The position numbers were made by a program, and so were the translations under genes. DNA of 64,000 bases from Escherichia phage dw-ec, in sequence record OL739525.1, one strand, 5' to 3'. The notes beneath the pieces are model-generated. The model did not search any database, had not been told where the DNA came from, and saw only the letters and a program-made list of their open reading frames with translations. This document shows, piece by piece, positions 42,245-60,545 of the stretch; the first letter of the stretch is position 1, and each line of letters begins with the position of its first letter.

Positions 42245-43204
42245 TTAGATTCCAATAATAGTTGCTGCTCGTTTATCTTTGGATCTGGTGTTTGCTCTAC
42301 TACGTGACAAACCTCCACAAGATTCACAACGAATGATATCGAAAGAACTTACCGCAGTGTGGTATTGCTTACCAGTAACAACGTGAACATGATCACTGCC
42401 GCAACGAGAACAACGGACTTTCTCATCTGGGTAATAAGCGGATAAGTTAGGATGCTGTGGAATCCACGGAAGGATTTTCATATACAAATCACGAAGTGAA
42501 ACAACATCACCATCATTGTAAATCTGCATACGTTCAAAAGCATCACGATCACCTTCACAACATGCTTTCCATAAAGGGAACCCCTCGTTATCCAGTTTTT
42601 CACTTTCTGTTTCAAAATACGCTCCCATCTCTTTAAGAGAATTGGAAGGAAGTGCAAACTGTTTCTTAGCTGCCTTCAAGGTATCAACAACTACATAGTT
42701 AGAAGGTGGAGCCATATCATGATATGCGAAGCGTTGGTTAATGTATGCACGGTCAAACTTGTACCCATTGTGAGCCACAACAACATCAGCTTCATTCAGA
42801 AGATTCCAAAGATCTTGGCAAAGTTCCCAATCATCTGTATGATCGATATCGAAAAGAGGATAAGAAGATAAGTTCTTACCTTCTACTTCACCTGTATACA
42901 AATCAGCAGAAGAGTAAGATAACAAATAACCCCTACGAATTACCTGGTCTGGAGAAATGAAGGCTTTGAATCGACGGAAAGTATATGCAATCTCTGGTGC
43001 AGTTTCAACATCAATAATTTTAATAACTGGTTGTTTCTTTTTAACTGGCTCTTGTTTACTTGCACCGAAACGTGCAAGAAAATCATTTACTGTGCTTTTT
43101 CTTGTTGGACTACCTAAAACAATTGCTGCAATATTGCGAGAAGACATACCCTCTGCACTCATACTAAGGATATCTGCTTTCTGCTCTTCTGTTAATCTGC
43201 TCAC
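42245..43204 (-). CDS. DEDDy-type 3'-5' exonuclease with N-terminal HTH and C-terminal zinc ribbon
   Basis: Exo motifs IIDVETAPE, AHNGYKFDRAYI, YNDGDVVSLRDLY; C-terminal CSRCG...CESCGG. Confidence 0.6.
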   Translation of the reverse strand: MSRLTEEQKADILSMSAEGMSSRNIAAIVLGSPTRKSTVNDFLARFGASKQEPVKKKQPVIKIIDVETAPEIAYTFRRFKAFISPDQVIRRGYLLSYSSADLYTGEVEGKNLSSYPLFDIDHTDDWELCQDLWNLLNEADVVVAHNGYKFDRAYINQRFAYHDMAPPSNYVVVDTLKAAKKQFALPSNSLKEMGAYFETESEKLDNEGFPLWKACCEGDRDAFERMQIYNDGDVVSLRDLYMKILPWIPQHPNLSAYYPDEKVRCSRCGSDHVHVVTGKQYHTAVSSFDIIRCESCGGLSRSRANTRSKDKRAATIIGI

Positions 43205-44319
43205 TCTGCCTCCTGTTGTGAGATGTATGACTGAAGCATACTCTCAAATGTTGTATCGTCATTATCCCAGCGTTTCATGTATACCAACTGGAAAATTGTT
43301 TCTATCCATTCATCTGTTGTCATATGGACTTCTTCTCCATCCCAAGAAGTAAAATTAACGCCATCTGGGAACCACGAGTAGTAAGTATCTTTAACTGTTT
43401 GGAAAAGTTCTGCTTGAGTTTTACAAGCTGAAAGAAGATTAAAACAAGTAATATCTCCGAACTTAATATCAAAATCTTGATAAGGTCGGATACTATCTGT
43501 TTTATCTCCCATTAGCATCTGATAGGCTAACCAATAACTTCCCCAACCTTTAACTTCTTTCTTTTTACCTTTATCTACGATCCATATGTCGCCAATAGAC
43601 TCGTCAATAAGAATTATATCTGGATTTTTAAATACTCCATCCTCTTTGTAGAAATTAAAAAGGATACTAGGAGTATGTAAACTATCTTTATCTATAGACA
43701 CTACGATATAAGAAAATTTACCCGTCCTTTTATAATCTTTATAACCTTGGAAACCATACTTCTCTAACTCATCGTCAGCCTCTATTACAGTAACAACATC
43801 ACCATTGTGGAACTCCACAAGATAATCTTTGGTTTCTGAAAGCTGAAGTGGTTTGATATCTAATCGTTCAGATTTATATTCTACAGGCATTTTGAAGGCG
43901 TGTCTGAAAGTTTTTCCTACGCCAATAACCCCGCAATATTTTTCTAAACGTAGATGTTTTAGAATACCTAAGACTTTTGTTTTAGCTGCTTGGAAGGTGT
44001 GTCCGATATCTTCTGGCGGGTATTGCTTATCAATAATTTCGAACTCTTCCTTTGTGAAGGGACGTTTGTTTTTGGAGGCTCTTTCTGCATTTGTATCTCC
44101 TAGCCAACCTCCAATTTTAGTCTTACTTTTACCCCAAAACTCTGTCTTATTTTTAAATTCCTTTTGAGCACCTGAAGGGATGTGCTTCGCAATGATTGTT
44201 CTTTTCTCTAATGCAGACGCTGCTTGGAAAGCGATCTGATCATAATCAATTGCAGCTATTGTTTCTTCGTTGACATATAAATGAAGATCTTCAGGTTTAA
44301 TTAAAATATAACCGCTAAT
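43201..44319 (-). CDS. RNase H-like 5'-3' exonuclease (T4 RNase H / flap endonuclease family), start codon uncertain
   Basis: reading frame open from 44331 to 43201 with no ATG/GTG/TTG before 43890; upstream part AAIDYDQIAFQAASAL resembles the T4 RNase H N-terminus and MLMGDKTDSI resembles the H3TH motif; putative AUU start after GGGGGA. Confidence 0.5.
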   Translation of the reverse strand: MSGYILIKPEDLHLYVNEETIAAIDYDQIAFQAASALEKRTIIAKHIPSGAQKEFKNKTEFWGKSKTKIGGWLGDTNAERASKNKRPFTKEEFEIIDKQYPPEDIGHTFQAAKTKVLGILKHLRLEKYCGVIGVGKTFRHAFKMPVEYKSERLDIKPLQLSETKDYLVEFHNGDVVTVIEADDELEKYGFQGYKDYKRTGKFSYIVVSIDKDSLHTPSILFNFYKEDGVFKNPDIILIDESIGDIWIVDKGKKKEVKGWGSYWLAYQMLMGDKTDSIRPYQDFDIKFGDITCFNLLSACKTQAELFQTVKDTYYSWFPDGVNFTSWDGEEVHMTTDEWIETIFQLVYMKRWDNDDTTFESMLQSYISQQEAE

Positions 44320-44331
44320 ATTTCCCCCTAA

Positions 44332-44541
44332 TTATTCATCGTCATCCTCTGTTGAGAATGTTTTAGTATACGGACATTGACGACTTTTCGGGATTGCTAT
44401 AACTTCATCTTGGTTAGCGTTAGAATAGTAGCAATATTTTGTGTTGCCATTAACTTCAGAATCAGACAAGATTAAAGTAATTTGACCTGCTGCTACTGTG
44501 AAACTAAAAGCTAAAAGAACGACTGTCAGAATCTTTTTCAT
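44332..44541 (-). CDS. hypothetical secreted small protein
   Basis: RBS aggagg; signal-peptide-like N-terminus KKILTVVLLAFSFTVAAG. Confidence 0.5.
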   Translation of the reverse strand: MKKILTVVLLAFSFTVAAGQITLILSDSEVNGNTKYCYYSNANQDEVIAIPKSRQCPYTKTFSTEDDDE

Positions 44542-44550
44542 AACGCCTCC

Positions 44551-44580
44551 TAAAAAGCCTACCTCATTAAGTAGGTAGGC
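44551..44580 (-). terminator. intrinsic terminator (minus strand)
   Basis: hairpin gcctacct/aggtaggc followed on the minus strand by TTTTTA. Confidence 0.5.
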
Positions 44581-44613
44581 ATAATATCATAACTAATCCC
44601 GCAAGTCAAGAAC

Positions 44614-45492
44614 TTATTTAAGGATTGTTGCTTTGGTTAAATCTTCCATCAGACCTCGAATCTCATTGAAGCACAGAAGGACTGAAGCTTCAATACTACC
44701 TTCTTCGTCTGCAAAATATTTCGGAAAACGTAGTTTAGAAAGTTTAAACTCTTTATCCACTACAAAATCTACAACACCGTCATATTCAAGACCGATTGCA
44801 ACCACATCTTTACCATCTTCTTTTAGTTCGACAGCTTTAGACTCATATAAGGATTCTTTACTCCAAACAACAACGCCCTCGCTATCCTCCATTTTGATAT
44901 AATTTCCGAGAGTAATACGATCTGCTTCGTGATTCTCCAGCAATTCACCAAAACCTTTTACAATAGCTTCTTCGTGCACACTAAAACCTACTGAAGGGAA
45001 AGTCCCCAGAACGGAACGGAGGAAAGAAGTAATCTCTTCTGCAACCTTTTTACTTCCATTAAGAACATAAAGAAGATTCGTAGTTTTATCCAAGACAACA
45101 TAGTTAAAGAAATCTTCAGGTTCTGTTTCAGGCAATAGTGCAAATTCAATATCTTCCTTCATTGCTTTGACTACTTCTTTATCGACATAAAACTCTTTAC
45201 CCTCGCTCTCCATGTCCTGACGCATTTCTTCTAGACGTTCATTCAGAATACGTTTAACTTTCTTTTTATCTACCTTCTTCACAGATTGACCTACATTAAG
45301 TAGTTCAAGATCTGAAAACTCTTTTACAAATTTAGAGTCATCTTCGAAACGAACAAGACCGATGGTGTGGGACTGGGAGCCTTCTGCTGTTACAAATTCC
45401 AGAGGAATATCTGTAATGCTGTTAAGGGATGCTACAGAAGCATTGTCACCAACAACCATAGGCAGAGCGGATTTAAAAGATTTTACAAACAT
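44614..45492 (-). CDS. hypothetical protein
   Basis: ORF, 292 aa. Confidence 0.5.
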   Translation of the reverse strand: MFVKSFKSALPMVVGDNASVASLNSITDIPLEFVTAEGSQSHTIGLVRFEDDSKFVKEFSDLELLNVGQSVKKVDKKKVKRILNERLEEMRQDMESEGKEFYVDKEVVKAMKEDIEFALLPETEPEDFFNYVVLDKTTNLLYVLNGSKKVAEEITSFLRSVLGTFPSVGFSVHEEAIVKGFGELLENHEADRITLGNYIKMEDSEGVVVWSKESLYESKAVELKEDGKDVVAIGLEYDGVVDFVVDKEFKLSKLRFPKYFADEEGSIEASVLLCFNEIRGLMEDLTKATILK

Positions 45493-55042: not shown

Positions 55043-55117
55043 GGCCCTGTAGCTCAATGGGAGAGCTGTCGGCTCATAACCGATAGGTAGCTGGATCGAA
55101 ACCAGCCAGGGCCACCA
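55043..55117 (+). tRNA. tRNA-Met (anticodon CAU)
   Basis: acceptor ggccctg/cagggcc, anticodon loop ctCATaa, T-arm and encoded CCA (hand fold). Confidence 0.7.
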
Positions 55118-55119
55118 AC

Positions 55120-55194
55120 GTCTTTATGGTGTAATGGATAGCACAGGAGTCTTCTAAACTCTTAGTCAAGGTTCGATTCCTTGTAAAGACACCA
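55120..55194 (+). tRNA. tRNA-Arg (anticodon UCU)
   Basis: acceptor gtcttta/taaagac, anticodon loop ctTCTaa, T-loop ggttcgattcc, CCA (hand fold). Confidence 0.65.
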
Positions 55195-55390
55195 GAACAT
55201 TTTAACATGAATTAGCTCAAGTGATTTGAACCCACTACTGATCATGGTGGCAGAGAATGAGGCAAGTATGTCAGACATTATAAACAAAGGCCACGGTTAT
55301 ATTAGAAGACATAAATGCTCGAAGAGCACCGTTCGTTGAGAACGGGGGTTGGTGGAGTCACCATTCATGGTAAAATGTTTTAAAAAACTA

Positions 55391-55420
55391 TTGACAACTA
55401 ACATTATTTTATGTTAGATT
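55391..55420 (+). promoter_or_regulatory. sigma70-like promoter inside the tRNA cluster
   Basis: TTGACA at 55391-55396, TTAGAT/TAGATT 17-18 bp downstream. Confidence 0.45.
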
Positions 55421-55428
55421 ATAAGTAT

Positions 55429-55519
55429 GGAAGGGCAAATCGATGTGGCGACGAAAACGGTCTTGAAAACCGCCGAGCTTGAAAGAGCCTTGGGAGTTCG
55501 ACTCTCCCTCCTTCCGCCA
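55429..55519 (+). tRNA. tRNA-Ser (anticodon UGA), type II
   Basis: acceptor ggaaggg/tccttcc, anticodon loop ctTGAaa, long variable arm, CCA (hand fold). Confidence 0.6.
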
Positions 55520-55524
55520 GATTA

Positions 55525-55610
55525 GGTAGATTGGTGAAATGGTAGCCACAACAGTTTGCTAAACTGTAGTCGGAAACGGCGTGTAGGTTCGAGTCCTACA
55601 TCTACCGCCA
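55525..55610 (+). tRNA. tRNA-Ser (anticodon GCU), type II
   Basis: acceptor ggtagat/atctacc, anticodon stem acagt/actgt with loop ttGCTaa, long variable arm, CCA. Confidence 0.65.
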
Positions 55611-55740
55611 AGTTCTTTTTAATATAGCTTACTTTAATAGAGTAAACTTTCGGCAGATGGCCTCCACCATCTTACCGATAACTCATAGTTAGTGGTGTGA
55701 ACACTGGCTATTTTAAAAAGAATTTAAATATTAGTATTTA

Positions 55741-55828
55741 GGTGAGTTAATTCCGTAGGGGTAGCGGGGCAGACTGTAAATCTGTTATCATTGCGATTCG
55801 GGTGGTTCGACTCCATCACTCACCACCA
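55741..55828 (+). tRNA. tRNA-Tyr (anticodon GUA), type II
   Basis: acceptor ggtgagt/actcacc, anticodon loop ctGTAaa, long variable arm, CCA. Confidence 0.65.
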
Positions 55829-55834
55829 AATTAA

Positions 55835-55920
55835 GATGAGTTGGCTGAATGGTTTAAGCGGCGGACTGTTAATCCGTGTTCGAAAGAACGATATAGGTTC
55901 AAATCCTATACTCATCGCCA
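55835..55920 (+). tRNA. type II tRNA, anticodon apparently GUU (Asn-reading), identity uncertain
   Basis: acceptor gatgagt/actcatc, 3-bp D stem, anticodon stem gcgga/tccgt with loop ctGTTaa, variable-arm hairpin gttc-gaaa-gaac, CCA (hand fold). Confidence 0.5.
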
Positions 55921-55927
55921 GAATTAT

Positions 55928-56004
55928 GGACTTGTAGAGTTAAGGTAAACCCCCAGTCGCCAAGAGGCTTCTGGAATTGCAGGTATCGAATCCTGCCGAG
56001 TCCC
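55928..56004 (+). ncRNA. tRNA-like sequence, fold unresolved (possible degenerate tRNA)
   Basis: acceptor-like pairing ggacttg/cgagtcc and T-arm-like gcagg..cctgc, but no clean anticodon arm. Confidence 0.3.
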
Positions 56005-56010
56005 AGTTTT

Positions 56011-56085
56011 GCTCCTATAGTATAATGGCTATTACAACGGTTTTGTAATCCGTGGATCTCTGTTCGATTCAGAGTGGGAGCACCA
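56011..56085 (+). tRNA. tRNA-Thr (anticodon UGU), tentative
   Basis: acceptor gctccta/tgggagc, T-arm ctctg-ttcgatt-cagag, anticodon loop ttTGTaa with a U-U at the stem end, CCA. Confidence 0.5.
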
Positions 56086-56358
56086 ACATAACATTAAGAG
56101 CACTGTGATTGATCGTCGTATCCTGTGCACAAGGTCTGCTCGAAAGACAGTGTTCTTAGTATTGTGTTGATCACACAAAGAGTTACCTGAAACTTGACCG
56201 GAGTAGGGTTGGATGGGGCAAAAGAAGAAGCGGCTCTCCCATCGACAGCAACGAAGAATAATATTTGACTTTGGTTTTGTATTATTTTAAGTTAGCTTAC
56301 CGAACGTAGGGCTAGTCACCCAATGGGATACTCGTCACTGTCCCACTCAATAAAACTA

Positions 56359-56388
56359 TTGACAACCAATAGTAAAATGTAGTATAGT
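56359..56388 (+). promoter_or_regulatory. sigma70-like promoter inside the tRNA cluster
   Basis: TTGACA at 56359-56364, TATAGT at 56383-56388. Confidence 0.55.
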
Positions 56389-56399
56389 AAAGATGTAGG

Positions 56400-56473
56400 G
56401 CGTTCTTGGTGTAGCGGTAGCATTCCGTCCTTCCAAGTCGGCGGCACGAGTTCGATCCTCGTAGAACGCTCCA
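56400..56473 (+). tRNA. tRNA-Gly (anticodon UCC)
   Basis: acceptor gcgttct/agaacgc, T-arm acgag-ttcgatc-ctcgt, anticodon loop ctTCCaa, CCA. Confidence 0.6.
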
Positions 56474-56571
56474 AATTATTTAATAAAGGGTTGCCAGAAA
56501 ACTTTCTCTTTTACTCATGGTTTTCTCCTTCTCTCACACCTCTTCTGGTTGCCCTTCATTAAATGATTTAT

Positions 56572-56647
56572 TGGTTTGTAGTGTAGTCCGGTAGCACACG
56601 ACACTTTGACTGTCGTAGGTTTGGTTCAAATCCAGACAGACCAGCCA
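56572..56647 (+). tRNA. tRNA-Gln (anticodon UUG)
   Basis: U1-A72 acceptor tggtttg/cagacca, D stem gtgt/gcac, anticodon stem cgaca/tgtcg with loop ctTTGac, CCA. Confidence 0.65.
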
Positions 56648-56652
56648 TATAA

Positions 56653-56729
56653 CGGAATTTAGCTCAGTTTGGTAGAGCATACGCTTTGGGAGCGTAGGGT
56701 CGCAGGTTCGAATCCTGCAATTCCGACCA
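56653..56729 (+). tRNA. tRNA-Pro (anticodon UGG)
   Basis: acceptor cggaatt/aattccg, anticodon stem tacgc/gcgta with loop ttTGGga, T-loop ggttcgaatcc, CCA. Confidence 0.7.
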
Positions 56730-56735
56730 ATCAAA

Positions 56736-56809
56736 TGTTTCGTAGTTCAATGGTAGAACCCACGACTGATAATCGTGAGACACAAGTTCGATTCTTGTCG
56801 AAACAACCA
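56736..56809 (+). tRNA. tRNA-Ile (anticodon GAU)
   Basis: acceptor tgtttcg/cgaaaca, anticodon stem cacga/tcgtg with loop ctGATaa, T-arm acaag-ttcgatt-cttgt, CCA. Confidence 0.65.
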
Positions 56810-56811
56810 GT

Positions 56812-56881
56812 TTCCCGTTAGACTTACAGGATAAGAGTTCCACAACTTATTGTGATGCTGGTTCGAATCCAGCACGGGATA
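56812..56881 (+). ncRNA. tRNA-like sequence with canonical T-arm but aberrant anticodon region
   Basis: T-arm gctgg-ttcgaat-ccagc and partial acceptor pairing; anticodon arm would need a 10-nt loop; no CCA. Confidence 0.3.
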
Positions 56882-56887
56882 CATAAT

Positions 56888-56966
56888 AGCGGGATAGAGG
56901 AGTCTGGTCGTCCTCGCCAGTTTCATATGCTGGAGATCATCGGTTCAAATCCGATTCCCGCCTCCA
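56888..56966 (+). tRNA. tRNA with anticodon CAU (Met or lysidine-Ile), A1-C72 mismatch
   Basis: acceptor agcggga/tcccgcc, D stem gagg/cctc, anticodon loop ttCATat, T-arm atcgg-ttcaaat-ccgat, CCA. Confidence 0.6.
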
Positions 56967-58469: not shown

Positions 58470-60545
58470 GTGGCAAAGAAAAAGGCAGCAGGTAGTTTAG
58501 CTGGAGTAGATATTGAAGTAAAGGCTCAACCAGGTAAACAGACTCTTGCAATGGATTTAATGCCAGAAGTTATGATTTATGGTGGTGCCGCTGGATGTGT
58601 TTCTGCTGAAACGGAATATCTTACAAAAGATGGTTGGAGGCAGATTAGTGAATATTCGGGAGAGGATATTTACCAATACAATCCTAAGAATAAGCGTTTA
58701 GAATTGGTAACACCTTATTTTGTAGAATACGATTTAAATGGAGATAACCTATACAGAATAACAAATGGTGTAGGATTGTTCCAAGAACTTAGTATGGAAC
58801 ACCGTTTTGTATTCTATAAGAAAAAGAAATCAAAGAAACATTTCGAGATTCTTGTAGGAGATCTTATTGCATTACAGCAAATAGGAAAACCCCTTCAAGG
58901 TTATGTAGAAAATCCATTCGGTAAACGTGTTCCTTTTAACATACCTGGTAAAAAGAGCACTTACTTAAAAATACACGAGGTTATTTCAACAGATGATAAG
59001 AAATATTGTTTTGAGACTCCAAGCAGTTATATTGTCTTTAGACGTGGCGATCACTGCTTCGTTACTGGGAATAGCGGCAAGTCTCGTCTGCTATTGCTGA
59101 AAGCTTTAAAATACGCCTACAAAGACCCTTTGTTTGGTGGAATACTTTTCCGTAAGAACACCACTGCTCACCGTAAACCAGGTGGTCTGTTTACAGAAGC
59201 AAAACGTTTGTATCTTCCTTTACAACCGCACGTAAAAGAAAGTACAATGGATATCATTTTTGAAGCCACTGGTGGTGGAACCCTCAAATTTGACCATTTG
59301 GAAAATGATAACGTAACAGCAGAAACAAACCATCAGGGTACACAGTATTCAATGGTAGGTTTTGACGAGTTAACCCACTTCACACAATATGAAATGCTCT
59401 ATCTTCTGGGACGTATGCGTTCAGAGTCAGAAACAAGTTTCATGTTGTGCACATGTAACCCTGACGCAGATAGTTGGGTTTTGAATTGGGTGTTACCTTA
59501 TCTTGATGAGGGTGGTTATCCTAGAGAAGATATGTGTGGTAAACAAAAATATTTCATCATTGTTAACGATGAACCTGTTTTTGCTGACACACCTGAAGAA
59601 CTGAAAGAAAAATATCCAGAAAACTGTTTCATGGAAAACCCTAATACAGGGGAGACAGTTGTTATTGAACCACAAACTTTCGTATTTATTGGTGGGACAA
59701 TATTTGATAACCCAGAACTCATTAGGCTTAACCCTAATTACTTAGCACAGCTTAAATCACAAACAGCGATTAAAAGAGCACAGCTTCTGGACGGTTGTTG
59801 GTTTGCACGTATTCAGAAAGAATCTTTCTTTCAACGTGAATGGTTACATAAAATATCTTATAAAGATGTTCCTAACAATCTTAAACTAATGCGAGCATGG
59901 GATAAAGCTGTTTCAGTTCCTACAGAAACTTACCGTTATCCAGACTATACAACATCTGTCAAAATGGGTAAAGACCAAGATGGTAATATCTACATCTTTG
60001 GCGACTATGATTATGATGCTGTGGATGAGAAAAGTAAAATTTTTGGAAGGTTTCGAAGACTACCTGGGGAAAGGGATAACCTGATTCTAAATCAATGTAA
60101 GATCGATGGACCAGAAGTTACAGTAGTTCTTCCTAAAGACCCATCTGGTGCTGGGACAATAGAATATACAGAGTCTGCAAAGAAACTCATTCTGGAAGGT
60201 TTTGTTGTTAAACCAGATGCTATGCCAGGTAACAAGAAAAAGCTTCAGCGTTTTATGCCTTTTAGTAGTGCGTGTCAAAACGGTTTTGTTTATATTGTTG
60301 AAGATTCTTTCCCTAATGTGGAAACTTTAACCCACTTTTATAAAGAATTGGAATCTTTCAATGGTGAAAGATCTACAGCCACTATTAAAGATGACATTCC
60401 CGATGCTGCTGCCTCTTGTTTTAATACTCTGTCAAAAGAGAATACTTTCAAGGCAGTAGCTATCCCTACAACAACAAATGCTCCTACAGGATACAGTAGA
60501 ATGAACAGCGGATTTCACCAACCGTATAGTGTCCGTAAAAGATAA
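58470..60545 (+). CDS. terminase large subunit (intein-containing precursor)
   Basis: Walker A split as GGAAG / SGKS around the insertion, Walker B MVGFDELTHF, nuclease domain downstream. Confidence 0.8.
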   Translation: MAKKKAAGSLAGVDIEVKAQPGKQTLAMDLMPEVMIYGGAAGCVSAETEYLTKDGWRQISEYSGEDIYQYNPKNKRLELVTPYFVEYDLNGDNLYRITNGVGLFQELSMEHRFVFYKKKKSKKHFEILVGDLIALQQIGKPLQGYVENPFGKRVPFNIPGKKSTYLKIHEVISTDDKKYCFETPSSYIVFRRGDHCFVTGNSGKSRLLLLKALKYAYKDPLFGGILFRKNTTAHRKPGGLFTEAKRLYLPLQPHVKESTMDIIFEATGGGTLKFDHLENDNVTAETNHQGTQYSMVGFDELTHFTQYEMLYLLGRMRSESETSFMLCTCNPDADSWVLNWVLPYLDEGGYPREDMCGKQKYFIIVNDEPVFADTPEELKEKYPENCFMENPNTGETVVIEPQTFVFIGGTIFDNPELIRLNPNYLAQLKSQTAIKRAQLLDGCWFARIQKESFFQREWLHKISYKDVPNNLKLMRAWDKAVSVPTETYRYPDYTTSVKMGKDQDGNIYIFGDYDYDAVDEKSKIFGRFRRLPGERDNLILNQCKIDGPEVTVVLPKDPSGAGTIEYTESAKKLILEGFVVKPDAMPGNKKKLQRFMPFSSACQNGFVYIVEDSFPNVETLTHFYKELESFNGERSTATIKDDIPDAAASCFNTLSKENTFKAVAIPTTTNAPTGYSRMNSGFHQPYSVRKR
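58596..59072 (+). mobile_element. mini-intein (Hint domain, about 159 aa) inserted in the terminase Walker A motif
   Basis: begins CVSAETEYLTKDGW (Cys1, block A), ends ...HCFVTGN followed by Ser+1; flanking exteins rejoin to GGAAGSGKS. Confidence 0.65.

Follow-up and report, generated by a model that had tools for sequence, protein, structure and literature searches.

Initiation of translation at near-cognate codons uses formylmethionyl-tRNA (fMet-tRNA), is inefficient, and is disfavoured by initiation factor 3 (IF3). Non-canonical start codons of this type are already well known from the Escherichia coli genes infC, which encodes IF3, and pcnB. Both are AUU-start genes, and infC, which is also found with AUC, is under IF3 autoregulation (PMC5499595). 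In both, an IF3-discriminated codon stands behind a functional Shine-Dalgarno (SD) sequence (PMC5499595, PMC3592434) and is conserved among orthologues, interchanging within the near-cognate set. In infC the stop codon of the upstream cistron is also close by, the thrS-infC junction having been modelled as UAA GGU AUU (PMC3592434). An account of a 64-codon survey puts initiation at AUA, AUC, AUU and CUG at about 1–2% of AUG in E. coli (PMC5499595); other measurements of near-cognate initiation gave about 5–15% (PMC5499595, PMC3592434), and in one reporter system AUU expression was 6–8 times below that from AUG (PMC3592434). Here we investigate a predicted 5'-3' exonuclease gene of the flap endonuclease (FEN) family in a 64,000-nucleotide stretch of Escherichia phage dw-ec (sequence record OL739525.1), referred to below as the window. 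The gene is a further case of the infC-type non-canonical start, and very probably comprises a complete frame of 372 codons that begins at AUU.

The nuclease frame is on the minus strand. A preliminary description of this DNA had noted that an open reading frame (ORF) at 43201–43890 stays open upstream to 44331. Direct reading and translation confirmed every coordinate: the frame runs from 44331 to the TGA at 43203–43201, its first ATG, GTG or TTG is the ATG at 43890, 147 codons in, and upstream it is closed only by the TAA of a 69-residue signal-peptide ORF that is in the same frame. Start-type codons make up 5.3% of the codons in the 41 long ORFs of the window, and at this rate the chance of 143 codons without one is P ~4e-4. 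This start-free lead is the longest in the window. The next-longest ones are on antisense frames, and the window-wide check found no other genuine gene with a comparable lead.

Are the codons upstream of this ATG part of the protein? The majority of database records annotate the ATG at 43890 as the start of a protein of 229 residues, in which case the 143 preceding codons would be a decaying remnant or untranslated. Comparison of codons 1–143 with phage ECGD1, from the sister genus (78% identity), found 44 identical codons, 48 with synonymous changes only and 51 with non-synonymous changes, which argues for purifying selection on the N-terminal protein, and the region is open in all relatives at 50–100% identity. 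When the whole open frame was used as a tblastn query, 1,212 phage records matched; in 900 of these the match spans 80% or more of the query, and numerous alignments begin at residue 1–5. In an alignment of 29 sequences, reaching down to 30% identity, D25 (in the motif IDYDQ) and R139 are invariant, and a protein started at Met144 would lose both of these along with strand beta-1 and roughly half of the PIN-like core. There is no SD before the ATG at 43890. The 229-residue calls come from gene finders that are unable to use ATT, and in relatives arbitrary internal GTG or TTG codons have been picked. The short protein is thus highly improbable as the true product, and the ATG is internal, as had been proposed; the 143 codons upstream of it belong to a nuclease like FEN and T4 RNase H.

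The identity of this nuclease comes from its fold rather than from sequence searches. Invariant in the 29 sequences are the carboxylates D25, E180, D182, D183, D210, D212, D272 and D275, a predicted set for two-metal catalysis with its first member at the end of beta-1, as in the FEN / 5'-3' exonuclease family. In the structure model D25 ends the strand E16–25, the predicted local distance difference test score (pLDDT) is 87–97 over the first 30 residues, and the modelled alpha/beta core is PIN-like with FEN topology. Matching structures were plastid exonuclease 1 (9l55, score 16.7), Mycobacterium smegmatis flap endonuclease (6c33, 15.0), E. coli ExoIX (3zd8, 14.7), T5 5'-exonuclease (1ut5, 14.3) and T4 RNase H (1tfr, 13.8), and Foldseek concurs with a FEN-type assignment. 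PHROGs places the protein in family 107, 'exonuclease' (E 1.4e-55). There was no Pfam match for the window protein, PF02739 (5_3_exonuc_N) included at its gathering score, and neither profile nor single-sequence searches of the PDB gave a match. Distant homologues have sub-threshold PF02739 matches (24–28 bits, the cut-off being 34.3), which start near residue 80–140 at about profile position 30. Despite the lack of a Pfam or PDB sequence match, the structure matches and PHROG 107 point to a divergent FEN-type 5' nuclease, recognisable by its modelled fold and by that family. Its predicted role corresponds to that of T4 RNase H (rnh) and T5 D15, enzymes that remove Okazaki primers and process 5' flaps. 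It is only 12–20% identical to these and about 70–100 residues longer than the T5 and T4 chains of 271–283 residues. In T4 and T5 the corresponding genes have ATG starts. The peptide AAIDYDQIAFQAASAL, which had been matched to the N-terminus of T4 RNase H, is present in the upstream stretch, but a likeness to that enzyme could be found only in the fold and not in the sequence.

With no AUG, GUG or UUG available for an N-terminus that is demonstrably coding, the start has to be sought among other codons. The sequence GGGGG is followed by the spacer AAAT and an in-frame ATT. GGGGG pairs with the anti-SD in the same way as GGAGG, with one G-U pair. The preliminary description had placed an SD 4 nt before this ATT; the distance holds when counted from GGGGG, and is 3 nt from the GGGGGA that it named. 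Four nucleotides is the modal spacing in this DNA, being found at 30 of the 65 sites in the whole window where an SD and a canonical start open an ORF of at least 60 codons, and the flanking genes keep it as well (GGAGG-CGTT-ATG and GGAGG-CAGA-GTG). The ATT is therefore a near-cognate codon at a functional SD distance. A scan of the window for an SD with a near-cognate codon gave one further candidate, at 58644, which is inside a gene with a normal start, and so the phage does not use near-cognate starts generally. The same ATT has been chosen once before: in the record of phage ESCO13 (KX552041.2) the annotators started the coding sequence ESCO13_00118 at the homologous coordinates, with a ribosome binding site feature. 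That record is an annotation without comparative or experimental support, and the ESCO13 genome announcement is silent on the ATT start (PMC5374246).

A comparison of the junction in related phages had been suggested as a check. Junctions were taken from annotated phages, IMG/VR contigs, metagenome contigs and contigs encoding database homologues, giving 31 distinct sequences that represent more than 120 genomes and encode proteins 50–100% identical to the window protein. The codon that corresponds to the one at 44319 is ATT in 16, ATC in 10, ATA in 4 and CTG in one, and in none of the 31 is it ATG, GTG or TTG. These are exactly the four near-cognate codons reported at about 1–2% of AUG. In every case GGAGG, GGGGG or, once, a weaker GGAAAG precedes the codon at a distance of 4–5 nt. 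The non-canonical start is therefore kept among orthologues, as it is in infC and pcnB, and the set used here, unlike theirs, also takes in AUA and CUG; dependence on IF3 is putative. In a neighbour-joining tree the near-cognate junctions form one clade, within which there have been several independent switches among the four codons. Outgroups have canonical starts, ATG in Certrevirus, where M-G-Y aligns with I-G-Y, and TTG in Vequintavirus CarlMeissner. The SD stands in a varying codon register between lineages (GGA GGT versus GAG GAT), which indicates that it is conserved as RNA and not as protein. Six homologues for which gene callers had given canonical-looking starts (TTG, GTG or ATG) were tested as predictions, and in all six the frame is open upstream to an SD with ATT or ATC. 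In L068, a 57%-identical relative, the gene caller's pick was an in-frame ATG nine codons after the ATT.

Initiation could instead occur at another non-canonical codon slightly downstream, such as the ATT at 44307 or the one at 44301, both of which are in frame, near-cognate and within 6 codons of 44319. The SD is 16 nt away from the first of these and 22 nt from the second, the L015/L016/L054/L055 clade has GAA at the position of the first and different sequence before the second, and residues 2–8 (SGYILIK) are conserved as protein. A downstream start is accordingly very unlikely, and the ATT at 44319 is preferred. The positions of this codon and of the surrounding features are collected in Table 1.

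Table 1. Positions of the features discussed, in the window unless another sequence is named
Feature	Position	Strand	Remarks
RdgC-like gene	45492..44614	minus	PF04381 match
Sigma-70-like promoter TTGACT-17-TATTAT (with TG)	44581..44609	minus	upstream of the 69-residue ORF; 10/12 consensus match, consensus scan only
GC-rich hairpin followed by TTTTT	44557..44580	minus	between the promoter-like site and the SD of the 69-residue ORF
Upstream 69-residue signal-peptide ORF	44541..44332	minus	phrog_4641; TAA at 44334..44332, 12 nt before the ATT
SD element GGGGG	44324..44328	minus	GGAGG in most relatives
Proposed AUU initiation codon	44317..44319	minus	first in-frame near-cognate codon after the SD
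Predicted full-length FEN-family 5'-3' exonuclease / flap endonuclease gene	43201..44319	minus	372 codons + TGA, ATT start
Invariant Asp25 codon (IDYDQ motif)	44245..44247	minus	end of first beta strand; invariant in 29-sequence alignment
Internal ATG (Met144)	43888..43890	minus	start in most database annotations
Downstream gene, RNase_H_2 / DNA polymerase exonuclease subunit	42245..43204	minus	GTG overlaps the nuclease TGA as GTGA
GTG start annotated in Justusliebigvirus	697 of L004; 258 of L063/L064

Is the missing start codon then a sequencing error or a recent mutation that destroyed an ATG in this one genome? Apart from the oddity itself nothing speaks for this. Of 64 Phapecoctavirus records, all sequenced independently, 53 match the 66-nt junction at 99% identity or more, 56 Justusliebigvirus records carry the same ATT junction, and metagenomic relatives carry ATT, ATC, ATA or CTG. 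A lesion, which was among the four explanations first offered, has next to no chance of being the right one.

Or does readthrough of the stop codon, or some other recoding, fuse the 69-residue ORF to the nuclease? The two ORFs share a frame here and in numerous relatives (19 of the 26 tabulated junctions have offset 0), and one database protein, P0005 (444 residues), looks like such a fusion. The frame relation is not conserved: the offset is 1 or 2 in ETEC-TG (L003), which has one extra nucleotide, a G, in the spacer that separates the ATT from the upstream stop, in all Justusliebigvirus (the L004 group), and in L010, L048, L054 and L059. A common frame with a single intervening stop is therefore not what the relatives preserve. 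In four lineages (L014, L043, L044 and L046) a second in-frame TAA stands immediately before the ATC, so that no in-frame upstream translation into the nuclease is possible. The P0005 fusion was rejected as false, since its DNA (L022 2001..3335, a Logan gene call) has an in-frame TAG that the gene caller read as Gln, and a replication nuclease would have no functional use for a cleavable signal peptide. The comparison refutes readthrough, an extremely improbable reading on this evidence. Recoded gene calls like P0005 in the protein database can mimic it.

The remaining explanation, coupled re-initiation, is no rival to the use of AUU and may contribute to it. The upstream ORF, whose homologue in phi92 carries a SignalP probability of 1.000 in its annotation, has counterparts in almost every relative inspected, ending 8–18 nt ahead of the nuclease start. 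The exceptions are L070, where no small ORF was called, and L068, where a methyltransferase gene ends there. The stop is thus within a few nucleotides of the nuclease start, as at coupled cistrons and as in infC, and it often overlaps the SD (TAGGAGG). At L068 353..401 the upstream gene encodes an N6/N4 DNA methyltransferase, its TAG overlaps the SD (ATAGGAGG), and the ATT follows GGAGG by 4 nt. In almost all relatives (44332..44360 and the homologous positions of L004–L070) the upstream ORF ends in an acidic run, STEDDDE, STDEDDE, QTDEEDE, ETDE or similar, and this conserved tail ends on the nuclease SD. Lying directly before or overlapping the SD, the run may be a feature of the protein or a by-product of the purine-rich ribosome-binding region.

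In its strict form coupling would leave the AUU wholly or mainly to ribosomes fresh from termination at the upstream stop, and nuclease synthesis would hinge on translation of that ORF instead of de novo initiation. The closeness of the stop to the near-cognate start, kept even with a methyltransferase gene upstream, fits this, and at short intercistronic distances, including the infC-like junction UAA GGU AUU, re-initiation and de novo initiation had about equal shares in published reporter experiments (PMC3592434). However, de novo initiation needs no more than a strong SD at the modal spacing, and tight gene spacing is usual in this phage, as in the GTGA overlap at 43204..43201, so that proximity is unspecific. 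In addition, overexpression of IF3 also inhibits re-initiation (PMC2268962), so coupling does not evade discrimination against the codon. In M13, gene VII likewise has a weak initiation site that follows closely on the stop of gene V (PMC2268962). Gene VII has no good SD, whereas the nuclease has a strong SD and a weak codon, and its coupling is putative. We consider obligatory coupling possible but somewhat doubtful; AUU initiation at 44319, perhaps helped by coupling to the upstream ORF, is the explanation that the evidence favours.

A number of points weigh against initiation at AUU, or against a regulatory role for it. The spacing of 4 nt is at the short end of the optimum found with E. 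coli reporters. ATT, ATC and ATA are synonymous codons for Ile and CTG (Leu) is a conservative replacement, so the codon pattern alone would fit an ordinary hydrophobic sense codon; that reading is excluded only by the flanking stops and the lack of an upstream start. The AUU start is itself a prediction from the sequence. The minimum free energy of the junction mRNA is no different from that of shuffled sequences (z = -0.19), and the folds vary among 13 relatives, with the SD sequestered in no consistent way. An mRNA structural switch is not proposed, there being no significant or conserved structure at the junction. Finally, the reason for a weak start, whether dosage control or regulation linked to IF3 or to coupling, is entirely inferred. 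That the 143 N-terminal codons are coding and have no canonical start, and that an SD and a near-cognate codon are conserved at this place across the clade, is shown by the sequences.

We suggest that the GGGGG element positions the ribosome at the AUU, where fMet-tRNA would start translation. Selection would keep the start in the weak, IF3-discriminated class (AUU, AUC, AUA and CUG), which, as in infC, would hold synthesis of the nuclease at a few percent of the AUG level. Termination and re-initiation by ribosomes from the upstream ORF, whose stop is 12 nt away, would probably add to the yield, and the likely purpose would be to restrict the amount of a 5' nuclease that could do harm. A single transition separates ATA from ATG, and even so the codon is not ATG, GTG or TTG in any of the 31 distinct junctions from more than 120 genomes, which suggests selection for a weak start. 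A stronger proposal, that the weak start is an actively maintained control device, that AUG would be deleterious, and that synthesis depends on the state of host IF3 and ribosomes or on the upstream secreted-protein ORF being translated, is tentative and we hold it to be rather unlikely. Unlike infC, the gene encodes a phage replication nuclease and not a translation factor, and no autoregulatory loop is evident. Papers on retrons and other defence systems that deal with phage exonucleases gave no direct link to this nuclease.

The window also contains a cluster of 10 tRNA genes (55043..56966, plus strand), two of them with a CAU anticodon. The first (55043..55117), with G1:C72, we take to resemble the Ile2 (lysidine) or the elongator type. 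In the second (56888..56966, 79 nt) the acceptor stem is topped by an A1-C72 mismatch and the D-loop is long. As neither tRNA, inspected by eye, has three G:C pairs in the anticodon stem, we do not invoke an initiator tRNA of the phage.

The region matches phAPEC8-like Escherichia phages of the genus Phapecoctavirus (subfamily Stephanstirmvirinae) at 99–100% identity, and the gene order on the minus strand is the RdgC-like gene, the 69-residue ORF, the nuclease gene and the gene for the RNase_H_2 / polymerase exonuclease subunit. The hairpin upstream of the 69-residue ORF could end transcripts of the RdgC-like gene, be a stabilising 5' stem-loop of a new transcript, or both. At the other end of the nuclease gene the overlap of its stop with the downstream GTG (43201..43204) is preceded by GGAGG and 4 nt, a typical coupled junction.

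How has the start been annotated elsewhere? The Phapecoctavirus records checked begin the nuclease at Met144. The Justusliebigvirus records checked (ECGD1, PaulScherrer and phi92) begin it at a GTG that is Val29 of the protein numbered from the ATT (IDYDQ|V), which drops the invariant Asp25. This GTG is ATC in the window and so is not conserved, and the phi92 record itself flags it: 'No RBS identified; weak Prodigal statistics'. The records of ETEC-TG (L003 1010..1234) and phAPEC8 (L062 542..664) have 'hypothetical proteins' of 30–40 residues, in other frames, inside the unannotated nuclease N-terminus; these are almost certainly gap-filling artefacts. Several unannotated 'Campylobacter phage' records (MG0656xx) are 99–100% identical to E. 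coli Phapecoctavirus, Justusliebigvirus or Vequintavirus genomes (H5, H36, H43, H44 and H102–H105), and probably are mislabelled as to host or contaminant assemblies.

Although an ATT start is already present in one GenBank record, the clade-wide near-cognate pattern seems to be unreported. A literature search, which did not extend to the phi92 genome paper, found no paper on this start codon or on the pattern. As annotated, the replication nuclease lacks its N-terminus in well over 100 Phapecoctavirus and Justusliebigvirus genomes on deposit, and most deposited genomes have the gene shortened in this way. Beyond infC and pcnB, the gene is a clean natural example of a start held in the AUU/AUC/AUA/CUG class across a whole phage clade, with repeated switches inside the class, which is the expectation if low or IF3-sensitive initiation is under selection. 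Phages of the clade can be cultured on E. coli, and some are in the BASEL collection, so the idea is directly testable by mutation of the start codon. If the weak start is an actively maintained control device, these phages would have a counterpart of infC-type start-codon control, perhaps limiting a 5' nuclease that is toxic or is sensed by host defences.

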